Both the position numbers and the translations under genes were made by a program. Below are positions 45,948-60,319 of a stretch of DNA of 64,000 bases, piece by piece; the stretch's first letter is position 1; each line of letters starts with the position of its first letter. The DNA is from Candidatus Aminicenantes bacterium (GTDB lineage Bacteria; Acidobacteriota; Aminicenantia; Aminicenantales; Saccharicenantaceae): assembly GCA_963725825.1 (NCBI GenBank), contig CAVSAI010000023.1, positions 5,296 through 69,295 on the forward strand, in the 5' to 3' direction. The notes beneath the pieces were generated by a model, which was given only the letters and a program-made list of their open reading frames with translations, was not told the origin of the DNA and made no database searches.

Positions 45948-46027
45948 CTGTCCTCCTTTTTCCGTGCGATCCGATTTGCCTTTTTCTCCCCTTCACGAAG
46001 GGGATGACCATCAGGGGTCCGCCCCGT

Positions 46028-46645
46028 TCAGTACTTGCGCATGATGCCGATGACCCGCCCCAGGATCTTGGCCGACGGGGCCTCGATCGGCTGGAAGGCC
46101 GGGTTCTCCGGGACGAGAAAGACATGACCGTTGTCGCGGCGCAGGCGCTTGAGCGTGACCGAGCCGTCGTCGAGCATGGCCACGACCATCTCGCCCGAGT
46201 TGGCCAGGTTGGTCCGCTCGAGCAGGACGTGGTCGCCGTCGTCGATGTAGGCGTCGATCATGCTCTTGCCGTCGACCCGGATGCAGAAGACGTTGCCCCG
46301 GCGGCGGCCGACCATCCAGCCCGGGACGTCCATGGCCTCGCCGGTCGCGTCGAACGACTCGCGCGGCCCGCCGGCCGGGACGAGGCCGGCCACCGGCACC
46401 CGGACCTGGCTCTCGACGAGGGCCGCGAGGCCGGCCACCCGGATCTCGCCGTCGGCGCGGCTGATGTAGCCCTTGCGCTCCAGGCTCTGGAGGTGCTTGA
46501 GGACGGCCGAGGGGCTGGGGATCTTGAGGGCCGAGCCCAGCTGGCGGATGGTCGGGGCGTAGCCGTGCTCGAGGACATAATCCTCGACGGCCTTGAGGAC
46601 CTTGGCCTGCCGGAGGGTCAGTTCCCGTCTCAATGTGTTTACCAT
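46028..46645 (-). CDS. lexA: LexA repressor
   Basis: Winged HTH (PTIRQLGSALKIPSPSAVLKHLQSLERKGYI), cleavage-site region VAG, and S24 peptidase Ser/Lys motifs (VDGKSM ... TLKRL). ATG at 46645 with an AAGGTG SD is preferred over GTG at 46654. Confidence 0.9.
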   Translation of the reverse strand: MVNTLRRELTLRQAKVLKAVEDYVLEHGYAPTIRQLGSALKIPSPSAVLKHLQSLERKGYISRADGEIRVAGLAALVESQVRVPVAGLVPAGGPRESFDATGEAMDVPGWMVGRRRGNVFCIRVDGKSMIDAYIDDGDHVLLERTNLANSGEMVVAMLDDGSVTLKRLRRDNGHVFLVPENPAFQPIEAPSAKILGRVIGIMRKY

Positions 46646-46661
46646 TTTGTTCACCTTTTAT

Positions 46662-46690
46662 AAGATAAGGCCGCCGTGGGCGTTTGTCAA
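46662..46690 (-). promoter_or_regulatory. lexA promoter (TTGACA-N17-TATCTT)
   Basis: -35 is the complement of 46685-46690 and -10 is the complement of 46662-46667. The -35 lies inside the three-copy 40-nt motif. Confidence 0.5.
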
Positions 46691-46732
46691 GTGGAAAATC
46701 GATGTGAGATTATTTCGTCAGCAGTCTCGTTA

Positions 46733-46860
46733 TTTGATAGGAAATTCCTTGTAAATTTACGCGCCTATCGACACTCCTCGACGATCTTCAGGCGGGAACC
46801 CCGTTCGCCCGGCCTTGCGGACCCTGCCTCGGTGGGCATTGGCGTAGCTCGTTCTCGCTC
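46733..46860 (-). mobile_element. Diverged, truncated copy (A) of the repeat-R terminus
   Basis: Minus strand reads ...TCGTCGAG..GCGCGTAAATTTACAAGGAATTTCCTATCAAA, which aligns with the last ~50 nt of R1 and R2. The inner boundary is approximate. Confidence 0.5.
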
Positions 46861-46993
46861 TCAGCGCCCTTGATAGAAAAACAAGAAAGCCAACATCCTG
46901 CGCGCCATAATGGCCTTGACACAAAAGTCCCTTTTCGATAAGTTCAATTTGCCCCAGAACAAGTTCTTATCCATCAGTGGAAGGGGGACGATT

Positions 46994-48385
46994 GTGCGCG
47001 GAAATAAGCCATTTTGCGTTTCCTTGGCTCTCTGGCTAGGCTTGATCGGGTGCCTTGCATCCGTATCGGGTGCCCAAACACCGCTGAAAACCATTGACAA
47101 TCCCCAGGGTGGAAAAATCGTGTACGGAGTGGTGGACGGGGCGACGAGCTCGGCGGCGGCCATGAGCGCCGTGCTGCGTATCGTGCACAACAACTGCGGA
47201 GAAAAGCCGCAGGTTGGCAGCGTGTTCAGGGTGCGCGGCACGAATTCCGATGCGGTCTTCTTCACGGTGGTCAACCACCCGCAAGGAAACAAGCAGGTTG
47301 CGGGCCTGCTCATCGCCTCTCCATCGGGCTCCAACAAGATGGAAGCGGCCCTCGTGAGCGACGATGCGACGCGTTTTGGCTCGACTGTAAACCCCATGCT
47401 GAACAGGCTATTCAGCGAGTGGCATCCTGGTAGCGGAAGGCCAGCTTCCGGCCCCGCGACGGGCAGCCGGCCGGCCCCGCCGGAGCCGCTGCACCGGGTT
47501 ATGACCCAAGACGGTTCGGCCAGCCTTGCTATCCCCAACGGCTGGAGATTTCAAGGCAACGGGGGCACCGTCATGGTCGTCGACCCCAACTACAACGTAA
47601 TAATCAACATCAACTTGGTACGGGGGGCGACCAACCCTTCTTATAGCCAGCCATACGGTAGGGCCACCGGCATGGGCGCCAAAATGGTCTACCCGTCCTA
47701 CGAGGATCCGGTCAAGGGGTTTCCAGGTCTTATCAAGGAGTTCTATCGCGTGAACAACCAACTCATTGACTTTCGGATCGACCACGCCGAGCAGGTGGCC
47801 GGTTCCCCCGGCCAACTCTGCGTCCATGCCATCGGGCACGGGATGCTTTTATCGGTAGGCCAGGCGCATCCTAACATACAGGAGAAAGACTACTGGGAGA
47901 TGGAGATGCTGGCGTGTTGCACTGCCCCTGATAGGATGGGCAACTACATGTTTACGCTTTCTATAAGCCAGATCGCCCCAAAGTTCGCTGACAAGGAGCG
48001 CGCCACCGTGGGCGCTATCCTCTCCAGTTTTGAGGTCAACCAAGCGGTGGTCGCGCGGCAAGCCAATGCCATCGCTGCGCCCGCCATCGCCGCCATTCAC
48101 AAAATCGGCGCGGATGCCACGGCGCGGATGAAGGCCATCGAACGAGCCAACGACGCCCAACACGCTGACTATTATGCCCGGCAGGACGCCAACGCCAGAA
48201 GCATTCAAGGCTTCAGCAACTACCTTCTCGATCAAACCGTCATCCAGGATAACAATGTGCACGGCAATGGCACGATCGGCCATGGCACCGTCTGGAACTC
48301 GACCGCTGATGCGTTGGTGAAAGCTTTTCCCAATCGCTATGAAATCGTCAATAATCCTAATTTCTGGAAGGGCTGGGATTACTGA
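46994..48385 (+). CDS. Hypothetical secreted protein (two-domain, lower-GC orphan)
   Basis: GTG at 46994 follows GGAAGGGGGA. Signal peptide FCVSLALWLGLIGCLASVSGAQ. A Pro/Gly/Ser linker separates two domains. No family recognised. Confidence 0.6.
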   Translation: MRGNKPFCVSLALWLGLIGCLASVSGAQTPLKTIDNPQGGKIVYGVVDGATSSAAAMSAVLRIVHNNCGEKPQVGSVFRVRGTNSDAVFFTVVNHPQGNKQVAGLLIASPSGSNKMEAALVSDDATRFGSTVNPMLNRLFSEWHPGSGRPASGPATGSRPAPPEPLHRVMTQDGSASLAIPNGWRFQGNGGTVMVVDPNYNVIININLVRGATNPSYSQPYGRATGMGAKMVYPSYEDPVKGFPGLIKEFYRVNNQLIDFRIDHAEQVAGSPGQLCVHAIGHGMLLSVGQAHPNIQEKDYWEMEMLACCTAPDRMGNYMFTLSISQIAPKFADKERATVGAILSSFEVNQAVVARQANAIAAPAIAAIHKIGADATARMKAIERANDAQHADYYARQDANARSIQGFSNYLLDQTVIQDNNVHGNGTIGHGTVWNSTADALVKAFPNRYEIVNNPNFWKGWDY

Positions 48386-48415
48386 AGGTACCGCGTATTT
48401 AAGAATCCCTGGGGA

Positions 48416-49597
48416 TCAGTCAACCGTCCACTGGAGCGAGTAGACCAGGACCTCAGGGAAGCCGCTGGGCTTCTCCCGGACGCAATAGAGGCGGTCGTTC
48501 TTGATAATGACGTCCCGCAGGGGTGGCCCGAGTTGGAGCCTCTGATAGCCCAGGGCCGTTCTGAGGACGCGAACGCCGCCCGGCGAGAACATGTCGCAGA
48601 CGCCGGCGCCTGTCGCCTGGTTTTGCCCATATCCGACGGCATAGAGCCGGTCATGATCGTCTGTGAGGAGGGCCAGGAACGGCGGGAATGTTCTTGGAAA
48701 GACTAGGTTCTTCCAGAACGGGTGGTTCGGGGGGAGCGAATGGAGGATCTCCTCACGGAATCCGTGAGGGACGTCGACCGCCGGATAGTCCGCCAATATC
48801 TTACGGATCAGGCGGCCACTCAAGTCATAGACCTCGATCTCGCGACTCGAGGCCATAGTCGTCAAGAAAAAGGAGGTTCGCGAAACCGCGACGAGGGGGA
48901 AATCGATGAAGATGGTCTTGAGCTCGTCCTCGACCGGAACGGGATACGCCTTCAGCTCTCGCCGCCTGGAAAAATCCGGGCCGAACAAGCCGACGCCGTA
49001 TGAAGAGAATTCGAGAGTCTCCGGTTTCACTCGGATATAGGCAATGACATAATCCCCGTTGGCGAGCGGCAAGAAGCCGTGCGGAAAGGGAAAAAGGAGG
49101 TCCGGCAGAGCGACCGTGCGAACCGCCGTCCCCTCCGCGTTGAAGAACAGGACCTTCCGGCCGCCCAGGCTGACCACAGGGATCTCTCCCCTGGCATTCA
49201 GCCGCATGAACCGGGGATTCTGCACCTCTCCGGGCCCCTGGCCGATAGGGCAAAATGACCGCACGAACCGGCCGCGGTCGTCGAACACGAAAACGGCATT
49301 CCCCGAGGTCGCGCTGCGCCGGAACAAGAGGATGCGCCGTTGCGAATCGACGTCGAGGTTCTCGATATCCGTCAGTCCAGTCGCCGCGACGGCGTCCTCC
49401 TCTATGTCGATCCTGAACTCTTCCCTCAGGGACAAGGCCCGCGGCTCTCCCTTGACCGAGTAGATGCCGGCGCCGTTCTCCACGATCTCAACGCCGTCCT
49501 GGAGTGTCCTCGTGGGGCCCTCATGATCGCCGCCGCAAGCGCAGAGGATCGCCGTTGCCGCAATTACGAAGGATCTTGATCTCAGCCGTTCCCACAT
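48416..49597 (-). CDS. 6-bladed beta-propeller lipoprotein (BF3164-like family)
   Basis: Lipobox AILCACGG. Repeated hydrophobic-Asp-x-x-Gly blade pattern (VFDDRGRF, FFNAEGT, VYDLSGRLI). Confidence 0.7.
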   Translation of the reverse strand: MWERLRSRSFVIAATAILCACGGDHEGPTRTLQDGVEIVENGAGIYSVKGEPRALSLREEFRIDIEEDAVAATGLTDIENLDVDSQRRILLFRRSATSGNAVFVFDDRGRFVRSFCPIGQGPGEVQNPRFMRLNARGEIPVVSLGGRKVLFFNAEGTAVRTVALPDLLFPFPHGFLPLANGDYVIAYIRVKPETLEFSSYGVGLFGPDFSRRRELKAYPVPVEDELKTIFIDFPLVAVSRTSFFLTTMASSREIEVYDLSGRLIRKILADYPAVDVPHGFREEILHSLPPNHPFWKNLVFPRTFPPFLALLTDDHDRLYAVGYGQNQATGAGVCDMFSPGGVRVLRTALGYQRLQLGPPLRDVIIKNDRLYCVREKPSGFPEVLVYSLQWTVD

Positions 49598-49609
49598 TGC
49601 CCTGAGCCG

Positions 49610-49638
49610 ATTCTAGCCATCGCCCGGCCGGATAGCAA
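49610..49638 (-). promoter_or_regulatory. Promoter TTGCTA-N17-TAGAAT (near-leaderless) for the beta-propeller gene
   Basis: -10 is the complement of 49610-49615 and -35 is the complement of 49633-49638. The ATG is 12 nt after the -10. Confidence 0.45.
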
Positions 49639-49746
49639 GTTCATATCGTGATGCGAAAGTCCGGTTTTGACAATGTTCGCCATCCGGGCCTGGCCAGCTC
49701 TTTTCTGCTCGACCCGACGCGGGCGTTTGTCAAGAGGAAAATGGAA

Positions 49747-49890
49747 TCAGGCCTTCCGAACGACCACGACCTGTAACTTGCGGCGCTCTTTGCGGAGATC
49801 CAAGCCGAGCTGATCTCGGACAGCCCCGCGGAGGCTTTCGTAGTCCTTCTCGACAGCCTTCAGGTCGTAGGTGTAGTTCTCCTGCCGAAG
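49747..49890 (-). pseudogene. Start-less 47-codon gene fragment
   Basis: Reads ..RQENYTYDLKAVEKDYESLRGAVRDQLGLDLRKERRKLQVVVVRKA*. There is no start codon. It is bracketed by copies B and C of the 40-nt motif. Confidence 0.4.
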
Positions 49891-49920
49891 GCATTTGTCA
49901 AGAGGAAAATCGATGGGAGA

Positions 49921-50412
49921 TTATTTCGTCAGTTTCTTGGCCGCGGCCCGGAGATACTTGAGATCCTCCAGGTCCTTGGGCCGCCCGACGGCCTTCTTGT
50001 TCTTGATCAAGGCAGCCAGGCCTATGTAGCGAACATCGACTTTTTTCCCCCGGATCAGCAATTGTTCAGTGATCCGGTCCTTCCAGGCCTCGTCGAATCC
50101 GACGCCGGAGATCGTGTTGTGCAGGTCGATCCGATTCGGGGGAAATCCAAACTGAACGATCTGCCCTCTTCGGGCCAGGTCGCCCGCGGATCCTATCCCG
50201 GGCACGTCTCCTGACCAGAATTCCCGGAGAGCGGCATACAGGGCCCGGCAATTCTTGAGGGACGGCTCATAGAACAGGTCGATGTCGCCCGTCAGCCGGG
50301 CAAAGCCGTGGTAGATGACCGCTTCCGCCCCGACGATGAGAAGACGGACCCCGTGCTTTTGGAGATGGACGAGCAGATCCAGAACATCCCGGGAGAAATG
50401 AGAGGGAGTCAT
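49921..50412 (-). CDS. Nucleotidyltransferase-fold protein (MNT/AbiEii-like)
   Basis: IVGAEAVIYHG...GDIDLFY carries the G-x-x-A ... DxD pattern. Length is 163 aa. Confidence 0.65.
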   Translation of the reverse strand: MTPSHFSRDVLDLLVHLQKHGVRLLIVGAEAVIYHGFARLTGDIDLFYEPSLKNCRALYAALREFWSGDVPGIGSAGDLARRGQIVQFGFPPNRIDLHNTISGVGFDEAWKDRITEQLLIRGKKVDVRYIGLAALIKNKKAVGRPKDLEDLKYLRAAAKKLTK

Positions 50413-50567
50413 TTAGCTGCCTCGGCGCTCCGGATCCGGGGAGAATTCTTACCATAAAATCTCTTGCGCAGCACCCGAGCGATGCGCTGGCGCGCTTCGG
50501 GGCTTAGGCCGATATAATATTGGATGTCCGAAGCTTCCTGGTCCTCGAAGCTACTGAATACTTTGAT
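50409..50567 (-). CDS. Small partner protein of the nucleotidyltransferase. The native start appears replaced by the repeat R1 terminus
   Basis: KVFSSFEDQEASDIQYYIGLSPEARQRIARVL.., with ATGA overlap to the NTase gene. Upstream in-frame codons belong to repeat R1, and there is no canonical start after the junction. Confidence 0.4.
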   Translation of the reverse strand: MKVFSSFEDQEASDIQYYIGLSPEARQRIARVLRKRFYGKNSPRIRSAEAAK

Positions 50568-50966
50568 TGATAGGAAATTCCTTTTCGCGCTCGACGAGAA
50601 ATCTCGGGTCAGGGACTTCCGATTAACCTTTCCCATCTCGACAAGGAGGGTATCACCGCCCCGAGCCGATGTCAATTTCTTGCGATTGAGCCGATCCGGC
50701 TGCCAGCGGGCGGATGAGCGGGGGGTCATCCTGAAACGGGGCCAATTAGGGCCAGACCATCTCCCTCTCCCGAGGTGCCTCTATTCATATTCCCCGCTCT
50801 CCTCGGCCGCCATCAGGACGACCTGCTCGAACGCATGGGCGGGCGGCGGCTTTGCGGCCGCGAACGTCAACTCCAGGTGACGAATGATCCGGTCGACGAC
50901 CGCGTACTCGGTCAGGAACGCAACGACTCTCATCCTCCCACCGCACCGGGGGCAGATCAGCGGGTC
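50565..50966 (-). mobile_element. Repeat R1: IS91-family-like transposase C-terminal remnant (~60 codons) plus ~216-bp terminus
   Basis: DPLICPRCGGRMRVVAFLTEYAVVDRIIRHLELTFAAAKPPP..EYE* at 50781-50966, then a non-coding end finishing in AAGGAATTTCCTATCAATC. Positions 50565-50796 are nearly identical to 57921-58152. Confidence 0.6.
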
Positions 50967-51358
50967 CACTCCCCGCTCAGGACTTGGACCAGGGTCGGAT
51001 CGCCCGCGCCGTCTTTCTGCGGAAAATTCGTGGCCGGCAGGCCCGCCTGATGTGTCAGCAACAAACGAAGGGTGACCTTCTGCCGCCGCGTCAAGTCGCT
51101 GTCCGGCAGCTTCCAGGACTTGAGATAGGCATTGATATCCTCGTCCAGGCTCAGGATCCCCTTTTCGACAAAGTGGAGGACGATCGCGGCCGTCACGAAT
51201 TTCGACGTCGAAGCCGCCTCGAAGCAGGAGTCCGCGGCCACGGGCCTGTCGCCGCCTGCTCTGAGGACGCCATAGGCCTTGGCCCATTCGATCCTAAAAG
51301 CCGTCGGATCGACTGAGAAGATCCGCGCCCTTGGGACGTCCCTTAGAAAGAAAGGAGA
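50957..51358 (-). pseudogene. Beta-lactamase-family serine hydrolase fragment (both ends missing)
   Basis: AYGVLRAGGDRPVAADSCFEAASTSKFVTAAIVLHFVEKGILSLDEDINAYL contains the S-x-x-K motif. There is an in-frame stop upstream and no N-terminus. The 3' side runs into the R1 transposase remnant. Confidence 0.55.
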
Positions 51359-51363
51359 CTCTC

Positions 51364-51702
51364 ATGAGCCAGTCCTCCCCTTTTTCCGATCCTCCCTTGC
51401 CCTTTCCGATCAAGGTCGTGCCCTCGGCGACCGGGCCGGTCCGGATCTATGAGATCCCGGACGACCAAAAGAAAACGATCCTCGAGCAGCTCTATATCTT
51501 CAGGCCGGTCCCATCTCTCGACGACGTCATGCAGGACATCCACGCCGAAAAGCGGTTCAGGGTCCGCGAGTTCCTGGTGGCCAGGGAAGGCGGGATGAAC
51601 GTTCTCGCGAGCCCCTACTATCTCGAGTCCGGGGGGACGGTCATCGACTGGGAGCTGGTCCGGAGGGCCCGGAAACGAGCTTCGAAGGTCGCATCTGGCT
51701 AA
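51364..51702 (+). CDS. Hypothetical protein
   Basis: ATG at 51364 follows AAAGGAGA. 112 aa; no family recognised. Confidence 0.45.
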   Translation: MSQSSPFSDPPLPFPIKVVPSATGPVRIYEIPDDQKKTILEQLYIFRPVPSLDDVMQDIHAEKRFRVREFLVAREGGMNVLASPYYLESGGTVIDWELVRRARKRASKVASG

Positions 51703-51860
51703 ATCGGCCAGACTTTTCGGCGGGAGTCCTCACGGATCCCGGCAGCCGCCTTTTGGAGCTCGACGACGATCTCGATCTTCTTCTCGAACGGCAGCTTGGC
51801 CAATTGGCGCCGGCGATCTCGCTTCTGCCGAAAGATACGCTCTGCGGCCTTATTCTTCAC
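51699..51860 (-). CDS. Possible 53-aa basic protein overlapping the 3' end of the second nucleotidyltransferase gene
   Basis: GTG at 51860 lies in the +1 frame of the NTase stop (GTGAAGAATAA). It reads VKNKAAERIFRQKRDRRRQLAKLPFEKKIEIVVELQKAAAGIREDSRRKVWPI. It is below the ORF-track cut-off. Confidence 0.35.
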   Translation of the reverse strand: MKNKAAERIFRQKRDRRRQLAKLPFEKKIEIVVELQKAAAGIREDSRRKVWPI

Positions 51861-52356
51861 GGAAACCCTTCTCGATCCTCCTCAGCTTGTCGGCCAGTCC
51901 GTGCTCTTCGAGGATCTTGTCGAGGACGGCCCTGTCGATGGCCGCTTCTTCCAAGAGCCGGACGACGCGCTCCCTATCCTTCGCGCGTCCGGTCTGCAGG
52001 GCGATGGCAGCCAGATATTCCGCTTTGACGACCTTGGCCTCGGTATCGCGGTATTTCAGCGTCGTGGCGCGGGTGACGGCCTCCCGGACGAGGGCATTGT
52101 AGGCCGGGATGAACTGGACGGGAAAGCCCTCAATGAGGAGGGCTTCGGCCTGTTCGGCATAGGCGCGGCTGCGGGCAAACTCATAAATGGGAGCGAGCTC
52201 GTCCAGCCCCTCCTTGACGGGGAGGAAAAAGACGTCCAGATCATAGGTTAGGACGGGTTCTATGTAATAGGTCGCCGCGATGCCGCCGCCGATGGCGTAA
52301 GCCTTGATGATCCCCAGGCGGGTCATCTCTTCGATGACTTGAAGGGTCTTTTCCAT
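51850..52356 (-). CDS. Nucleotidyltransferase-fold protein (second copy, diverged)
   Basis: ATG at 52356 inside ORF 51850..52485. The core is AYAIGGGIAATYY...YDLDVFF. A TATAAT (complement of 52375-52380) lies 18 nt upstream. Confidence 0.6.
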   Translation of the reverse strand: MEKTLQVIEEMTRLGIIKAYAIGGGIAATYYIEPVLTYDLDVFFLPVKEGLDELAPIYEFARSRAYAEQAEALLIEGFPVQFIPAYNALVREAVTRATTLKYRDTEAKVVKAEYLAAIALQTGRAKDRERVVRLLEEAAIDRAVLDKILEEHGLADKLRRIEKGFREE

Positions 52357-52395
52357 GGGGAGCTCTCGGGATCGATTATAATTGAAATCCCCCTG

Positions 52396-52436
52396 AAAAC
52401 AAAAAAGGGCGGATGCCCCTTTCGGGAAATCCGCCT
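52396..52436 (-). terminator. Rho-independent terminator after the NmrA-like gene
   Basis: Minus strand reads GGCGGATTTCCCGAAAGGGGCATCCGCC followed by CTTTTTTGTTTT. Confidence 0.7.
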
Positions 52437-52450
52437 TCACACCTGTCTGT

Positions 52451-53308
52451 CTATCGCGCAAGCATCCTGGCGATAAATCCCGCAACGTCAGTCGGCGGGC
52501 GCTTGAGCAACATGGTCAGGACATGCGGATTGCCAGTGAGCCCGTGCTGTTCATAGTAGCGGAACATCGTCGCCAGCGTTTGCACGCCGTGATCCGGCAT
52601 GCCGTGGTTGCGCATCCGCTGCGCCCATTTGTCGATATCGAGGTTCTCAGCAGTAACCGGGCGACCCAACGTCTGGCTGAGAGTACCGGCGATCTCTGCG
52701 GCAATGAGCACTGCCGGGCCGCTCAATTCATAGGTGGCAAAAAGGTGGCCGTCTTCCGTGAGCACGCGCACGGCCACTTCCGCCACGTCATCCAGATCCA
52801 CCAGCGACATACCGGCATGCAGTCCAAAGAAGCTGGCGAAAATCCCCTGTTCGACGATCCGCGACCATATCTCCCGCAGGTTCTGCATGAAGGCGGCCGG
52901 CTGGAGGATCGTGAAGGGGAGATTCGATTGGATCAGCGCCATTTCCACACGAAGCTTCTGCGCATGATGGGGCATGGCCTCGATCTGCGGATGTAGCACC
53001 GAGTGGTAGACAAAGCGGGCCACGTGTGCTTCACTGGCCAGCGCGATCATCCGCTGCCCGATAGCCGCTTCATCTGGCTGCACGGGCGGGCAGATATGAT
53101 AAACGGCGTCGATGCCCTGCAAAGCCTCTCTGAGCGATTGGTCATCACGCAGGTCACCGACCACCACATCCGTGGCGCCAAGTTCCTGCAATGGCGCCAC
53201 CTGTTCCTGCCGATGAACCAGAGCCCGCGTCGCTACGCCTGCCTGTGCGAGGGCACGCACGACGGCTTGTCCGGTCTTCCCGCTCGCACCCGTAACAAGG
53301 ATCAACAT
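52451..53308 (-). CDS. NmrA-like / atypical SDR NAD(P)-binding protein
   Basis: MLILVTGASGKTGQAVVRAL Rossmann start. 285 aa. GC is visibly lower than in the flanks. Confidence 0.8.
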   Translation of the reverse strand: MLILVTGASGKTGQAVVRALAQAGVATRALVHRQEQVAPLQELGATDVVVGDLRDDQSLREALQGIDAVYHICPPVQPDEAAIGQRMIALASEAHVARFVYHSVLHPQIEAMPHHAQKLRVEMALIQSNLPFTILQPAAFMQNLREIWSRIVEQGIFASFFGLHAGMSLVDLDDVAEVAVRVLTEDGHLFATYELSGPAVLIAAEIAGTLSQTLGRPVTAENLDIDKWAQRMRNHGMPDHGVQTLATMFRYYEQHGLTGNPHVLTMLLKRPPTDVAGFIARMLAR

Positions 53309-53342
53309 CTATTCCCTCCATCATCCGAACCAAACACAATTT

Positions 53343-53685
53343 ATAGGTAATCCCTTTTGCGCTTGGTTTGAGATCGCCCGTCTCGGGCTCGGAATCAACC
53401 CTTCCCTTCACAGAAAGAGGATATCCCGGCCCCCGACAGAAGTCAACATCTCGACATTGCGCTTACCTGGCAGATTGGCGGGCAACGGATCGGGTGGGTG
53501 ATCCTGAAATCGGGTCAAATGAGGCCAGGCCACTCCCCTCTCCCAGACGCCGGCTATTCGTATTCCTTGCTCTCCTCGCCCGCCATCAGGGCGGCCTGTT
53601 CGAGGACACGAAGCGGCGGCGGCTTCTCGGCCGCGAACGTCAACTCCAGGTGACGGATGAACTCGGTCGAATATGCCGACTCAAA
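53343..53685 (-). mobile_element. Repeat R3: diverged copy (43-codon transposase tail plus ~210-bp terminus)
   Basis: SAYSTEFIRHLELTFAAEKPPPLRVLEQAALMAGEESKEYE* at 53554-53685. The non-coding part is roughly three-quarters identical by eye to R1 and ends in ..GGGATTACCTATAA. Confidence 0.55.
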
Positions 53686-53693
53686 TCAAGAAT

Positions 53694-53720
53694 GGGGACA
53701 CGTACCAGGTACATGTCCCC
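53694..53720. repeat. 27-nt palindrome GGGGACACGTACC-A-GGTACATGTCCCC
   Basis: It has the same ATGGGGACACGTACC left arm as dnaE2 insert E2. It sits between the R3 remnant and a terminator module. Confidence 0.75.
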
Positions 53721-53740
53721 GAGATGAAATCCCCTTGGAA

Positions 53741-53780
53741 AATAAAAAAGGGCGGATGCCCCTTCCGGGATATCCGCCCT
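53741..53780 (-). terminator. Rho-independent terminator after the RRM remnant
   Basis: Minus strand reads GGGCGGATATCCCGGAAGGGGCATCCGCCC followed by TTTTTTATTTT. It is about 90% identical by eye to the 52396-52436 module. Confidence 0.7.
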
Positions 53781-53814
53781 TTGGCGTTCGAATAAAGTCA
53801 GCTAGAAGCTGAGA

Positions 53815-53993
53815 TCAGTACCGGCCGCCGCCGCCGCCTCTGCCGCCGCCGCCGCCCGTGCGGGGCCGGTCGGTGCGGGGCCGGGCTTCATTGACCGTCA
53901 GGGGACGGCCCTTGAGGTCCTTGCCGTTAAGGCCCGAGATGGCCTTGTCGGCCTCTTCCTTGTTCGGCATCTCGACGAAGCCGAAACCGCCCG
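53815..53993 (-). pseudogene. 3' half of an RRM-type RNA-binding protein gene (N-terminal RNP2 half missing)
   Basis: GFGFVEMPNKEEADKAISGLNGKDLKGRPLTVNEARPRTDRPRTGGGGGRGGGGGRY* parallels residues 43 onward of the intact gene at 63564. Confidence 0.65.
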
Positions 53994-54521
53994 GCCCCAG
54001 CCGCCGAAGAGACATGTCACATAGACGGCGTCGTTGGCCCCGGCGTCGAATTCGGCTTCGACCCGCGTCCAGTCCTGAGTGCCCGTGACCGGCGGCGTCC
54101 GCCAGTCCCCTTCTCCGTCGATATTGATCTGGGCGCCCCGGCTCTTCCCGGGAACCAGGTTCTCGGTCTTGATCCATCCGCTCAGCCTGTAGCGCGAATA
54201 GGGCCGGATGGGGACGGTGGCGACCCACGAGGCGTCGGCGCCCTTCTCGGAGGAGATCATGACGCTCCGGCTCCCCGCATGTCCGGCTGGCTCGACGGCG
54301 AAGACAGCGTCGCTTCCACGCTGCCAGTTGCGGGAAGTCCATCCCTTGGGCTTCTCGCCGGCCATCTCTTCGAAGGAGCCGTTGGCGACGAATTGCGTGA
54401 CGCCGGCCAGCTCCTCATCGGTGCGGGGCGCCTTTGTCTTGCACGTTACGAGCGAAAACAGCATCCCGCAAGCGGCCAGGACCGTAAGGGCTTGTGCGAT
54501 AGGATAACGGGGGGTGTTCAT
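53898..54521 (-). CDS. CBM/galactose-binding-like lipoprotein with its 3' end replaced by out-of-frame RRM gene sequence (chimera)
   Basis: ATG at 54521 follows GGAAGGAGGA. Lipobox-like LAACGM. The GSFEE...GWTSRNW...YRLSGWIKTENL fold ends abruptly at CLFGGWG, then 31 Arg/Ser/Thr-rich codons follow. Confidence 0.5.
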   Translation of the reverse strand: MNTPRYPIAQALTVLAACGMLFSLVTCKTKAPRTDEELAGVTQFVANGSFEEMAGEKPKGWTSRNWQRGSDAVFAVEPAGHAGSRSVMISSEKGADASWVATVPIRPYSRYRLSGWIKTENLVPGKSRGAQINIDGEGDWRTPPVTGTQDWTRVEAEFDAGANDAVYVTCLFGGWGRAVSASSRCRTRKRPTRPSRALTARTSRAVP

Positions 54522-54680
54522 CATTCCTCCTTCCGGTCCGGACGGCCCTCGGCTGGGGGTGGAACCTGGCGTTATGGATCCCCGACAGGCCGCGGACGGC
54601 AAGGGAGAATGTATCTTGGCTTCCGCCGCGTGTCAACGCCGCGCTTGACAGGGGACCCGAGTCCGGGTAACCCTTATCTC

Positions 54681-55265
54681 ATGTTCCTGTTCTTCGATTG
54701 CGAGACGACGGGGCTTCCTCGGATCCGCTATTTCTCGCCCGAGGTTGCCGACGAGTGGCCCCGCATCGTCCAGCTCGCTTGGGCCCGTTACGACGCCCAG
54801 GGACGCCCGGGCCCGGTCCAAAGCCATATCGTCCGGCCCGAGGGCTTCACCATCCCCGCCGACTCGACGCGCATCCACGGCATCTCCGACGCCCAGGCCC
54901 GGAAGGTCGGGCGCGAGCTTTCCGATGTCCTCGACGAGTTCGTCGCCGAGGTCGAGCGGCCGGCGACGACGCTGGTCGCCCACAACTTCGATTACGACCG
55001 CGGCGTCGTCGGGGGCGAGCTCGTCCGGACGCGCAAGTCCCTCCGCTTCCTGGAGCTGCCGTCGGTGTGCACGATGAAGCGGACGACCGACATCGTCGGC
55101 CTGCCGAGGCCGGGCGGCCCCGGATATAAATGGCCGACGCTCGAGGAGCTCCACACCTACGTCTTCGGCTTCTCCTACGAGGGGGCCCACGACGCCGCGA
55201 GCGACCTCGAGGCCTGCGCCCGGTCCTTCTTCAAGCTCCGCGCCGTCGGCCACTTCCGGATCTAG
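54681..55265 (+). CDS. DEDDh 3'-5' exonuclease (DnaQ/epsilon-like)
   Basis: ATG at 54681 inside ORF 54279..55265. Exo I is FFDCETTG, Exo II is LVAHNFDYD, and Exo III is GAHDAASDLEA. Confidence 0.8.
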   Translation: MFLFFDCETTGLPRIRYFSPEVADEWPRIVQLAWARYDAQGRPGPVQSHIVRPEGFTIPADSTRIHGISDAQARKVGRELSDVLDEFVAEVERPATTLVAHNFDYDRGVVGGELVRTRKSLRFLELPSVCTMKRTTDIVGLPRPGGPGYKWPTLEELHTYVFGFSYEGAHDAASDLEACARSFFKLRAVGHFRI

Positions 55266-55272
55266 ACGAGAC

Positions 55273-55363
55273 TTTTTTTTATGGGAATTCCCTTATCGCG
55301 CTCGGCGTGAGATCGCTGGCCGCGGAATCCAAAGCAACCCGTCCCTCACCTCTCCCAGGCGCC
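55273..55363 (-). mobile_element. Repeat R5: ~90-bp miniature derivative of repeat R
   Basis: The minus strand starts directly after the AKR stop with GGCGCCTGGGAGAGG (R1 has AGGCACCTCGGGAGAGG) and ends in ..GAGCGCGATAAGGGAATTCCCATAA (R1 has ..GAGCGCGAAAAGGAATTTCCTATCAA). Confidence 0.5.
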
Positions 55364-56870
<1,507 letters not shown>

Positions 56871-56904
56871 CACGCGACTCTCCTTTCTTTCTATCCCGGC
56901 GACT

Positions 56905-57110
56905 CTACGTGCGAAGCAGCGTCTTGATCGCGTGGCGCTCGTCCATCGCTCGATAGCCCTCGGCTGGTTGCTCGAGCGGCAGCTCGAGATCGAAGACCTT
57001 GCCGGGATTGCTGGTCCCGGTCTGCACCAGCTGAATGAGTGTCGGAAGGTATCGGCGCACCGGCGCTGGACCATCATGCGGATGCGGTGCGTGTAGAACA
57101 GCTTCGCGCC
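56905..57110 (-). pseudogene. C-terminal relic of a Zn-dependent alcohol/formaldehyde dehydrogenase
   Basis: ..VRRYLPTLIQLVQTGTSNPGKVFDLELPLEQPAEGYRAMDERHAIKTLLRT*. The preceding ..LFYTHRIRM is in another frame. There is no N-terminal part. Confidence 0.45.
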
Positions 57111-57157
57111 ACGACCTTTATCCTCCCGCCGTATCGGGGGTCTACGACCGGCTACGC

Positions 57158-57529
57158 TCATTTTACTCCGGAGTCTCCCGTTCCTTTTGTGGCCTGATCA
57201 TGATGATCCGGTCTCTTCAGAGGAACCGACCGATTCAGAGCCGGCCGGGCGGTATAAAGATTTCCCGGCCGTTCTTCACGGCCGTTCTTCAGCTCTTCCC
57301 TGATGATGCGGCGGAGGAACGTCCCAAGGTCCTCCCCGCCTCGCTGGACGTATTCCCTGAGTGCGCTATTGATCATCGTTTGATAACTGCCGCCGCCCTT
57401 GGCGTCAACTTGGTCACGAAACCAATCAAGGATCTCATTATCCAACCTTATCGTGATCCTGGTTTTCCCGGGAGGCGCAGGGAACAGGGCGCCTCTCTTG
57501 CCTTTGCTGAAGTCATAGAATTTTTTCAT
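57158..57529 (-). CDS. brnA: BrnA-family antitoxin (RHH)
   Basis: MKKFYDFSKGKRG...KTRITIRLDNEILDWFRDQV..GGGSYQTMINSALREYV is the BrnA signature. Confidence 0.75.
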   Translation of the reverse strand: MKKFYDFSKGKRGALFPAPPGKTRITIRLDNEILDWFRDQVDAKGGGSYQTMINSALREYVQRGGEDLGTFLRRIIREELKNGREERPGNLYTARPALNRSVPLKRPDHHDQATKGTGDSGVK

Positions 57530-57531
57530 GG

Positions 57532-57627
57532 TCATTCCCAATAGCGTTGACTCTCAATGCGGCCGGCCTTTCGAGCCGAGATGATCCTGACCTTGTTCGC
57601 TTTTTTCGCGTCCCATGTCAGCTTCAT
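57532..57627 (-). pseudogene. brnT: BrnT toxin gene with in-frame internal deletion (31 codons remain)
   Basis: MKLTWDAKKAN|KVRIISARKAGRIESQRYWE* keeps only the N- and C-terminal BrnT signatures. The stop is 2 nt before the brnA ATG. Confidence 0.55.
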
Positions 57628-57632
57628 CGTCA

Positions 57633-57660
57633 TTGTATGCACACTTGTGCATCCTATCAA
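57633..57660 (-). promoter_or_regulatory. brnTA promoter TTGATA-N17-TACAAT with palindromic operator ATGCACAAGTGTGCAT
   Basis: -10 is the complement of 57633-57638 and -35 is the complement of 57655-57660. A 16-nt palindrome lies at 57637-57652. The ATG is 4 nt after the -10 (leaderless). Confidence 0.5.
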
Positions 57661-57760
57661 GCGGATTCTTTCACCTCTTGACCGCGAAAAACTTCGGCCC
57701 CGGCTCCTCATTCCGAAGAGAGACGGACCTGTTTAGAGAGACGCGGGGGAGAGATATTAG

Positions 57761-57920
57761 GATAGGAAATTCCTTTTTTCGCCCGGCTCGAAAATGCCGG
57801 CTTCGCGCTCAAAATCACCCCGTCCCCTCACAAAATAAGGATATCCCGGTCCCGGACAGGTGTCAAGAACACCAAATTCATCGGTACGGAGCGCTGGCGG
57901 GCGGAATGTCGGGCCGGACA
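57761..57920 (-). mobile_element. Repeat R4: older diverged terminus copy, cut off by R2
   Basis: The minus strand ends in ..AAAAAAGGAATTTCCTATCC. The interior aligns with R3 (CCCCTCACAAAATAAGGATATCCCGG against CCCTTCACAGAAAGAGGATATCCCGG). Its inner part stops exactly where R2 begins. Confidence 0.5.
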
Positions 57921-58187
57921 GATTGATAGGAAATTCCTTTTCGCGCTCGACGAGAAATCTCGGGTCAGGGACTTCCGATTAACCTTTCCCATCTCGACAA
58001 GGAGGGTATCACCGCCCCGAGCCGATATCAATTTCTTGCGATTGAGCCGATCCGGCTGCCAGCGGGCGGATGAGCGGGGGGTCATCCTGAAACGGGGCCA
58101 ATTAGGGCCAGACCATCTCCCTCTCCCGAGGTGCCTCTATTCATATTCCCCGCACTCCTCGGCCGAGGCGTCTGCCATCAGGACGAC
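57921..58187 (-). mobile_element. Repeat R2: near-identical copy of the R1 terminus with only ~17 transposase-tail codons
   Basis: One mismatch was noticed against R1 over the ~216-bp non-coding part. The tail reads ..VVVLMADASAEECGEYE*. Confidence 0.6.
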
Positions 58188-58222
58188 TACGCAAGGGTCG
58201 CGCACGCACCTGGCGAAAGGCC

Positions 58223-58852
58223 TTAATCTCCCAAGGCGATCTTCAATCGCCTCAGCGGGCTCCAAAACTTGATCTTCGCGGGATCGAAACGGTCCGGCCT
58301 CCAGCGGCCCAGCCAGTCCAGCATGCCTTCGGAGTTGTCCCGATTCTTCAGGGCCTCGATGCAATCATAATAACCCGGAATCCCGCCACAATCCTCAGGC
58401 GGTCCGGCCAGCTCGCCGGCCAGGCAGGCCGGATACTTCTTTCCCGGCTCCTTGGGATAGGTCCCCTCGAACAGGACTTCATGCCGCCAGTCGTCGCCGT
58501 AATCGTAGGTATAAAGCGCCCGGTCCCCCGGCTCTTGAATGAAATCCGCCACCGCGGCTTCGGTCGTGAGGAGATGGGCCGCCTCTTCGAGGTCGTCGAG
58601 CGCGAACGGGGATTCTATCCGAATGTCCAGGCAAGCCCGACGCAGAGGCTGGATCTTGAAATCGTGCAAGTGAGAGTCCAGCCAGCCCATCGCGTCCTGG
58701 AGCGCGACATGCAGGTCGTAAAACGTATAATAGTCCGGTACCTGGATCATCCTCCAAACCGGAGGATCGGTCTCGAGAAGGGTGATCTTGAACTGCAGGA
58801 CGAACTGATAAGGTCTTCTCCGAGGCCAAGTGATGGTGATCTCTCTGACCAT
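58223..58852 (-). CDS. pRiA4b ORF-3-like (PF07929-type) protein
   Basis: YQFVLQFKITLLETDPPVWRMIQVP and GDDWRHEV motifs. ATG at 58852, with an alternative TTG at 58861. Confidence 0.75.
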   Translation of the reverse strand: MVREITITWPRRRPYQFVLQFKITLLETDPPVWRMIQVPDYYTFYDLHVALQDAMGWLDSHLHDFKIQPLRRACLDIRIESPFALDDLEEAAHLLTTEAAVADFIQEPGDRALYTYDYGDDWRHEVLFEGTYPKEPGKKYPACLAGELAGPPEDCGGIPGYYDCIEALKNRDNSEGMLDWLGRWRPDRFDPAKIKFWSPLRRLKIALGD

Positions 58853-58870
58853 AGCGGCCAACCTGAGCCG

Positions 58871-58899
58871 ATTCTAGTCAAAGGGCCTTTGGCTGGCAA
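58871..58899 (-). promoter_or_regulatory. Promoter TTGCCA-N17-TAGAAT
   Basis: -10 is the complement of 58871-58876 and -35 is the complement of 58894-58899. It shares the 16-mer CTAGAATCGGCTCAGG with the promoter at 49610. Confidence 0.45.
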
Positions 58900-59020
58900 G
58901 CATCGTTTTCATGCTCGGCACAGATCGCGGGCGTTCATTTCCTTGACAGAATGAGCGCGTGTGGAATAGTGTTTCGTTCGCCGCGGCCGCTTTGGCCGCC
59001 ACAAGGAGAGCACAGGTCCG

Positions 59021-60319
59021 ATGAAGAAATTCCTGAAGAAGGCCCGTTGGATCCTGATCCCGGCCGCCCTGGCCACGATCGTCACCCTCTGGGTTGTCAA
59101 ATTCGAAACCCAAAAACCCGAAATCCGTACGGACGGCGACAGCCCGTTCCTGGGCCGCGAGCTCACGTTTCGGGCCAGCGACCGGAAAAGCGGTCTGGCC
59201 GAAGTCCGCGTGGAAGCCATGCAGGCCGGTCGGACCATCGAGGTCTTTGCCGAAAGATTCCCCGCGGCGCTGCCAACTTACGTCAAAACGCTGACCCTGC
59301 GGCCGCTTCCCGCCGGACTGGCCGACGGCGAGATCCTCCTTCGGATCTCGGCCAAGGACCGCTCCTGGAACGGCGGGAACACCGCCGTCGTGGAAAAAAA
59401 GATGATCCTCGACACCCGCCCACCCCGGATGAACATCGTCGGCGGGCCGCACTATATCAACACGGGAGGCGCAGGCGTCGTCTCCTGCACAGTGGACGAA
59501 GAAACCCCGGTCGTCGGGATCCAGGTCGGGGAGCGCTTTTTCCCTGGATTTCCGACCGGAGGAAACCGGTTCCTGGTCTTTTTCGCGCTTTCTCCGGACG
59601 CGTCCCGCGACGTTCGTTTCTCCGGCGTGGCCGAGGATCCGTCCGGCAACCGGACGAGTATCGTTTTCCGGCCGGTGATCAAGACGGTCGCCTTCAAGCA
59701 GGACACCCTGAACCTGTCCGACAAGTTCCTCGGAGATGTCGTCTCCTATTTTAAGAACATCGACCCGGGGCTCCGGGGAACGGACCTGGAAGCCTTCCTG
59801 ACAGTCAACCGGACGCAGCGGGAGAAGGATTATGATCGGTTGGCGATCCTCTGCCAAAAAACAGAATCCCGGATGCTCTGGTCCGGGGCATTTCTCCGGC
59901 TCCCGAACTCAAAGCCCATGGCCTCGTTCGGGGATCGGCGGACCTATACGTACAACCGCAAGGTCGTCGACCAACAGGTCCATCTCGGCGTGGACCTGGC
60001 CTCCACGGCCCAGTGTCTCATCCCCGCGGCCAACTCCGGCCGGGTGGTGTTCGCCGGCCCGCTGGGTATCCACGGCCTGGCGGTCGTCCTGGATCACGGC
60101 CTGGGATTGTTCAGCATGTATTGCCATTTGAGCCAGATCGACGTCGCGTTGTCCCAGGGCGTGACGCGCGGCGAAACCCTCGGGCTTTCGGGATCCACGG
60201 GCCTGGCCGGCGGTGATCATCTCCATTTCGCCATGCTCGTTCACGGGGTATTCGTCAATCCCGTGGAATGGTGGGACGCCCACTGGATCCGCGACAACGT
60301 CGAGCTCAAGACACGGTGA
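59021..60319 (+). CDS. M23 (LytM-type) metallopeptidase, membrane-anchored
   Basis: N-terminal TM segment. HLGVD (HxxxD) and GDHLHF (HxH) motifs in the C-terminal domain. Confidence 0.85.
   Translation: MKKFLKKARWILIPAALATIVTLWVVKFETQKPEIRTDGDSPFLGRELTFRASDRKSGLAEVRVEAMQAGRTIEVFAERFPAALPTYVKTLTLRPLPAGLADGEILLRISAKDRSWNGGNTAVVEKKMILDTRPPRMNIVGGPHYINTGGAGVVSCTVDEETPVVGIQVGERFFPGFPTGGNRFLVFFALSPDASRDVRFSGVAEDPSGNRTSIVFRPVIKTVAFKQDTLNLSDKFLGDVVSYFKNIDPGLRGTDLEAFLTVNRTQREKDYDRLAILCQKTESRMLWSGAFLRLPNSKPMASFGDRRTYTYNRKVVDQQVHLGVDLASTAQCLIPAANSGRVVFAGPLGIHGLAVVLDHGLGLFSMYCHLSQIDVALSQGVTRGETLGLSGSTGLAGGDHLHFAMLVHGVFVNPVEWWDAHWIRDNVELKTR

Follow-up and report, generated by a model that had tools for sequence, protein, structure and literature searches.

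We propose that the repeats of family R, found in a 64,000-nucleotide stretch of Candidatus Aminicenantes DNA (the window), are probably the debris of several separate insertions of an IS91-family element and were shaped mainly by later events. Their source would be an unnamed insertion sequence (IS) of the IS91 family (HUH, two-tyrosine, rolling-circle type) that measures about 1.6 kb, codes for a transposase of 428 aa, and occurs widely in Candidatus Aminicenantes. The terminus common to the copies, ...AAAAGGAATTTCCTAT(C), would be the origin end (oriIS) of this element. Differences in how far the copies reach inward from it would stem mainly from internal deletions and from deletions running out of the element, and also from replacement by other DNA in a hypervariable accessory region of 12.2 kb. 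A minority of copies, with R3 as the clear case, may have been truncated before they inserted, having arrived as one-ended products or as fragments mobilized in trans. All copies would now be immobile, as the genome holds no transposase.

A first-pass annotation had reported at least six co-oriented copies within 12 kb. Six were found, together with a seventh, decayed piece (Table 1), and the reading direction of all of them is the minus strand. In a repeat search, R1 (50565-50809) and R2 (57921-58165) were 99% identical across 245 nt, R3 matched R1 at 77-83% in longer blocks, and a 56-nt terminal block was common to five copies. R1, R3, R2, R4, and R5 aligned to the right end of a full-length relative with E values of 1e-105 to 9e-8, and the similarity within family R is far above chance expectation. 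The common terminus is present in six copies as ...GGAATTTCCTAT(C). Its start on the plus strand ('ATAGG') was used for the refined coordinates, and element positions were taken from the full-length relative (1588 nt) as aligned to the window. Codon counts of the coding tails changed little, from 60 to 61 in R1, from 43 to 41-43 in R3, and from 17 to 16 in R2. The R1 tail translates on the minus strand as DPLICPRCGGRMRVVAFL...IIRHLELTFAAAKPPP...GEYE* and is 84-85% identical at the amino acid level to full-length relatives; the R3 version is shorter. The terminus of R2 adjoins the inner end of R4.

Nested 5' truncation, which had been suggested for the family, does not describe the whole series: R1 to R4 are uninterrupted, but the junctions in A and R5 are internal deletions. 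In copy A the deletion spans about 400 nt, as judged from tblastn and direct reading. R4, R5, and A had been described as codon-free, which does not apply to A: it encodes YANAHRGRVRKAGRTGF and, past one frameshift, RLKIVEE, equivalent to transposase aa 324-347, and it retains the codons of the YANAHRG Y-motif. In tblastn it had 94% amino acid identity to residues 133-149 of protein P0001. The seventh piece (tblastn E 0.09-0.55) is the same as the tail of a relative at 34 of 44 nt (77%) and is probably the other part of the element that included R5. Two further copies of the terminus lie elsewhere in the same genome (C31:94352-94439 and C33:27955-28046).

Table 1. Copies of family R and outward promoter-like elements in the window, with the DNA that follows the terminus
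Feature	Window position	Strand	Element position	Content	Coding-strand flank after terminus
R1	50567/50570-50969	-	1181-1587	terminus, 216-nt 3' non-coding region, and last 61 tnpA codons (aa 367-427)	CAATC
R3	53343-~53693	-	1256-1568	terminus, 3' non-coding region, and 41-43 tail codons	AAATT
R2	57923/57926-58187	-	1341-1584	16 tail codons, 9-nt insertion	CAATC
R4	57762-57925	-	1476-1582; diverged continuation to ~160 nt	terminus and ~160 nt of 3' non-coding region	CCTAA
R5	55281-55363	-	1512-1585	terminal ~65 nt fused to first ~17 nt after tnpA stop codon	AAAAA
A	46737-46846	-	1051-1086 (region of A; unexpected piece)	last 25-30 nt of terminus fused to tnpA codons 324-347 (Y2 catalytic-motif region)	CAAAT
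Seventh piece, decayed tail	57107-57151	-		aa ~369-383, PVVDPRYGGRIKVVA	
R1 promoter-like element	50647-50675	-		TTGACA-17-TACCCT, -10 weaker than in R3 and R4	
R3 outward promoter (predicted)	53446-53418	-		35 nt upstream of NmrA-like gene start	
R4 outward promoter (predicted)	57866-57838	-		R4 lies 50 nt upstream of truncated brnT-brnA pair	
G019 copy					CAAAC
Other family members					CTTT, GAAG, AGAG, AAAT; further examples AAT, AAA, TTT

Identification of the coding tail as a genuine IS91-family transposase C-terminus, already suspected in the first-pass annotation, is well supported. G019, a Candidatus Aminicenantes MAG of the same genus, has an intact 428-aa transposase whose residues 367-427 are 84% identical to the R1 tail. 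This transposase scores 194.8 bits on NF033538, the NCBIfam equivalog for IS91 family transposases (cut-off 125), 79.6 bits on PF04986 (Y2_Tnp), and 76.5 bits on PF14319 (Zn_Tnp_IS91). Y2_Tnp and Zn_Tnp_IS91, the models named for checking the tail, thus both recognize the full-length relative, but the 61-aa tail alone had no transposase match in Pfam or NCBIfam models because these models end at aa 377. Searching the tail with phmmer against 1.8 billion representatives gave 1908 matches (267 at E<=1e-10), mostly to short ORFs; the longer ones fit PF04986 and PF14319 and bear an HPHLH HUH motif, a Y2 motif (RYYGLYANAHRGK), and an N-terminal zinc finger. IS91-like ISPps1-family transposases were recovered by tblastn against plasmids at E~1e-4. 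A 2839-aa predicted protein in the public library (P0016) has five separate matches to the transposase tail and is probably the read-through of a remnant array or a mis-called gene. That the window lacks an intact transposase was confirmed, and the same holds for the window's own genome, in which Y2_Tnp (PF04986) had no match; in this 70%-complete bin of 60 contigs a transposase gene could be unassembled.

Equally well supported is that the terminus is a real end of the element, on the oriIS side, with about 205-220 nt between it and the transposase stop codon. The comparison of two copies, the pile-ups of copy ends in relatives, and empty sites all lead to this conclusion, which upholds the earlier claim of a fixed end. 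Full-length copies, for which a search had been proposed as a check, are present in the same-genus genome G019, and the terminus is an end there too: the two G019 copies are 99.8% identical through ...GAAATTCCTATCAAACAT and divergent right after ...CCTATCAAACAT. In G068, G081, and related genomes, which carry a 75%-diverged subfamily, 24 copies share one end point and 9 begin at the left end. About 20 diverse family members have the motif ...AAAAGGAAATTCCTAT 196-210 nt past the stop codon. The empty site of R1 is seen in G014, where the DUF6036 toxin-antitoxin module occurs without R1 and homology to the window ends at 50566, the terminus start; that of R3 lies on contig C9 of G031, where NmrA-like and RRM modules are joined without R3. 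In IS91, transposition starts at oriIS, which lies downstream of tnpA, and 1-10% of events fail to stop at terIS on the upstream side (PMC13181058; PMC3189936). Family members have a conserved palindrome, GTCAAC-N4-GTTGAC, near the left end, and the alignments leave the exact terIS cleavage site unfixed. RNAalifold found no consensus structure for 19 diverse origin ends, in which individual copies have short palindromes only, and Rfam had no match over 46000-59500, which sets the 3' non-coding region apart from known RNAs.

The DNA beside the terminus was examined for the GTTC/CTTG target preference that had been put forward as a further check. No such consensus emerged in about 35 flanks read, which are A/T-rich. 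NTTG occurs on the other strand in 7 of 13 flanks within the genus, several of them not independent, and this pattern is absent from the wider family. CTTG is present in the native site of R1, but the boundary there is ambiguous. At neither R3 nor the G019 copy is a target duplication seen; at the R3 site, however, 4-10 nt differ from the empty site.

Two cases point to one-ended events in this family. The flanks of R3 are contiguous on contig C9 of G031, with 10 nt in place of the ~355 nt of the window, and by this comparison R3 is a simple insertion of a copy that had been truncated beforehand. Directly adjoining the inner end of R3 is a 27-nt REP-type palindrome (53694-53720), GGGGACACGTACC-A-GGTACATGTCCCC, whose counterpart in the G031 empty site is only 16 nt long. 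The two copies in G019 (G019:C2 3166-5041 and G019:C6 3327-5020) have a precise common right end and also share 347 bp beyond the left end. These 347 bp are part of an aspartate/glutamate-racemase-like gene, which lies upstream of the left end and is intact only at the first locus; the second copy has a 183-bp deletion, by which the first ~53 codons are lost. From these alignments we infer a natural one-ended transposition by terIS read-through, followed by decay. The racemase DNA comes from beyond the left end, which fits an oriIS-to-terIS polarity.

Aborted or one-ended copying, the mechanism suggested at first, accordingly finds support in R3 and the G019 pair, but it is not supported as a general cause and would account for some copies, not most. 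In its strict form, every copy is a primary product of rolling-circle transposition that began at the fixed origin end, stopped early at different points inside the element, and inserted truncated. Such events do have a precedent, as IS801 yields right-end copies of 229, 360, and 679 nt at high frequency (PMC3189936), and in R4 the last four letters before the next terminus are ATTG. We nevertheless consider this explanation unlikely. The internal deletions of A and R5 cannot arise by such a mechanism, R1 lies between two unrelated truncated genes and has no contiguous target, the inner ends of ten copies vary in position over ~50 nt and have no tetranucleotide in common, orthologous copies differ by deletions, and most fragments in the genus are without the ori end.

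Comparison of individual loci with related genomes illustrates the later events. In a DUF6036 nucleotidyltransferase pair, the R1 terminus stands in place of the first ~7 antitoxin codons. Beyond the inner end of R1 lies a hydrolase relic and not the lost start and promoter of the antitoxin gene, and the inner junction of R1 is therefore secondary. The antitoxin frame (50409-50729) begins inside R1 in the window (MGKVNRKSLTRDFSSSAKRNFLSIKVFSS...), in G014 with MKRRRTQVKVFSS..., which gives the window frame a chimeric N-terminus. In G021, an R1-type copy occupies practically the same site; it lacks 41 nt internally, and its inner end is not that of R1. In G033 a copy of another subfamily, with its own internal deletion, lies 10 nt upstream of the antitoxin start. 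Around the DUF6036 pair, R ends occur at three different positions in three genomes. An orthologue of R5 follows the exonuclease gene in G036; it has lost the terminal ~190 nt, including the terminus, and has kept tail codons. In G012 and G041 the exonuclease gene is directly followed by brnA, which identifies the 1.9-kb block from R5 to ~57202 as an insertion. This block contains an AKR gene, a lipocalin-like gene, and an ADH relic; R5 forms its left edge, and the 57107-57151 piece lies close to the right one.

A common truncation point near element position 1181 was considered and rejected: ten aligned copies stop at scattered points from ~1166 to ~1215, and no tetranucleotide is common to their inner ends. 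The inner ends in the window (…GTCCAC, …GACGAC, …GGTCGA…, and …GATTG) have none in common either. An apparent recurrent 93-nt terminal module (starts at 1489-1495) proved to be an alignment break caused by subfamily divergence, as the copies continue through the promoter.

Fragments of the element are present in 36 of 42 genomes of the genus, with full-length copies only in G019; order-wide, fragments occur in 75 of 101 genomes. Among ~148 listed fragments of the genus, ~37 have the ori end, ~17 the left end, and ~90 neither. Many are internal-deletion derivatives, such as a junction of element positions 83-401 to 1423-1582 that occurs twice in G019. In G085, a 27-kb stretch of contig C9 (27000-54000) has six co-oriented copies of this IS family; three of them are ~1-kb internal-deletion derivatives with both ends, are 86-91% identical, and seem to be non-autonomous copies that multiplied. 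The breadth of this distribution also bears on whether the repeats could have arisen through faulty assembly of a long-read metagenome bin, or be similar by chance. As related copies occur in 36 of 42 genomes, the copies differ among themselves by 1-30%, and independent genomes show 88-98% conservation of their flanks, the probability of such an origin is negligible.

Decay of separate insertions, our preferred explanation, faces difficulties. The ori end is about twice as common as the left end (37 versus 17 in the genus, 24 versus 9 in the G068/G081 group), an excess that random deletion alone does not predict and that a mechanism starting at oriIS would favor. The co-orientation of all six or seven copies in the window suggests a directional process. 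Furthermore, R1 and the 57107-57151 piece stop within a few nucleotides of each other (~1181), which could reflect a preferred stop site. The ori-end excess and the co-orientation are only partly explained.

The copies reside in an accessory region between lexA and an M23-peptidase gene. Because the promoters of these two genes are 8 bp apart in G001 and G036, the window has a 12,233-bp insert (46703-58935), which sits exactly between the two divergent -35 boxes. At least eight other genomes of the genus hold different gene sets at this site, some without an R copy. Within the insert of the window, the segment 53988-57711 carries a CBM-lipoprotein/exonuclease pair followed by brnA; it is conserved elsewhere on the chromosome in G012, G041, and G036 and seems to be a core segment relocated in this genome. 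A 49-nt direct repeat (46673-46721 and 49884-49932, also 49714-49745), 90% identical, flanks a 3.16-kb block beginning with copy A. It consists of the lexA -35 region and the last DUF6036 codons, lexA and DUF6036 are adjacent in G021, and the arrangement looks like the integration of a circle by homologous recombination. On contig C4 of G031, at the equivalent of window positions 55212-55322, a 1-kb insert with part of a beta-propeller-like gene lies between copies of a 103-bp duplication, which is made up of the exonuclease gene end and the first 42 nt of the R5 terminus. This locus is 98% identical to the window on the AKR side, only 88% on the exonuclease side.

An alternative hypothesis gives the R termini a working role in recombination or capture, ISCR-like or cassette-like; they would have built the lexA-adjacent island, and modules between them would move as units, either from one origin to the next or by integration of circles through homologous recombination. 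The position of R copies at module boundaries, the three R end positions around the DUF6036 pair, the direct repeats around the block of copy A, the duplication in G031 that contains the R5 terminus, and the co-oriented array in G085 are in accordance with such activity. Yet R-free module boundaries are common, no R-to-R module was found at two places, and neither a transposase in the genome nor a tyrosine recombinase on the contig was found. In addition, the lexA-M23 site of G041 and G007 is variable and carries different inserts without any R copy, which also disposes of the notion that R elements alone built the island. We regard working capture sites as very improbable and the R elements as residents of a variable region rather than its sole builders. 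An integron cassette array was likewise rejected, as there was no PF00589 match on the contig of the window and the repeats are transposase remnants.

R3 and R4 contain TTGAC(T/A)-17-TATCCT on the transposase strand, directed outward across the terminus. Of 23 family members from diverse MAGs, 15 have this element at a start distance of 101-110 nt from the terminus; in shuffled controls the mean is 0.19 and the maximum 2. These sequence patterns point to an outward promoter of sigma-70 type, conserved at ~100 nt from the terminus, whose activity is predicted. R1, R3, and R4 place it directly upstream of the co-oriented antitoxin/DUF6036 pair, the NmrA-like gene, and brnT-brnA, respectively, and R1 is fused into the antitoxin ORF. 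One may speculate that in a circular intermediate transcription from this promoter would also cross the junction and enter tnpA. It is tempting, if improbable, to see in the origin-end fragments of Aminicenantes portable promoter-plus-recombination modules of ISCR type. If this were so, the fragments, helped by a transposase acting in trans or by homologous recombination, would capture, shuffle, and switch on small accessory genes, and gene shuffling at the lexA-M23 site could be tied to the SOS region.

Family R shares several features with the IS91 family (IS91, IS801, and IS1294). These are the Zn_Tnp_IS91 and Y2_Tnp domains, with the full-length relative above the NCBIfam IS91 equivalog cut-off; functionally different ends that lack terminal inverted repeats; a conserved origin end downstream of tnpA; a palindrome near the left end (here GTCAAC-N4-GTTGAC); and read-through at the left end that takes flanking DNA along. 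The lack of a visible target duplication at R3 and the G019 copy may be a further similarity. It differs in the A/T-rich DNA by the origin end, which is without a GTTC/CTTG consensus, in its host Candidatus Aminicenantes, in having no orf121, and in being represented by remnants only in the window. The right-end miniatures of IS801 (229, 360, and 679 nt) from Pseudomonas syringae pv. phaseolicola (Bardaji et al. 2011, PMC3189936) also retain the right (origin) end and vary in their inward reach, and R3 resembles such a product. However, the miniatures come in few discrete sizes, each ending at a left-end-like tetranucleotide, whereas the inner ends of family R are scattered and two window copies (A and R5) are internally deleted. 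ISCR1 has outward POUT promoters at oriIS (PMC6218425). ISCR elements are similar to family R in the outward-facing promoter near the origin end, which for family R is predicted from sequence, in the co-oriented genes just past this end, and in the mosaic accessory region. Family R differs in having no integron context and no resistance genes, and the ISCR transposase clade Ia model (NF052416) gave 144.7 bits, far below its cut-off of 925.

The kind of mobile-DNA debris described here is thus already known from IS801 right-end miniatures and ISCR. Our results agree with the IS801 study, in which most genomic IS801 fragments stem from reorganisations (PMC3189936): one-ended products exist, and most fragments derive from later deletion and rearrangement. 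They add an uncharacterised and very widespread IS91-family element to the mobile DNA of uncultivated Candidatus Aminicenantes, and its defined origin end and predicted outward promoter should aid the annotation of many short orphan ORFs in metagenomes that are transposase tails.
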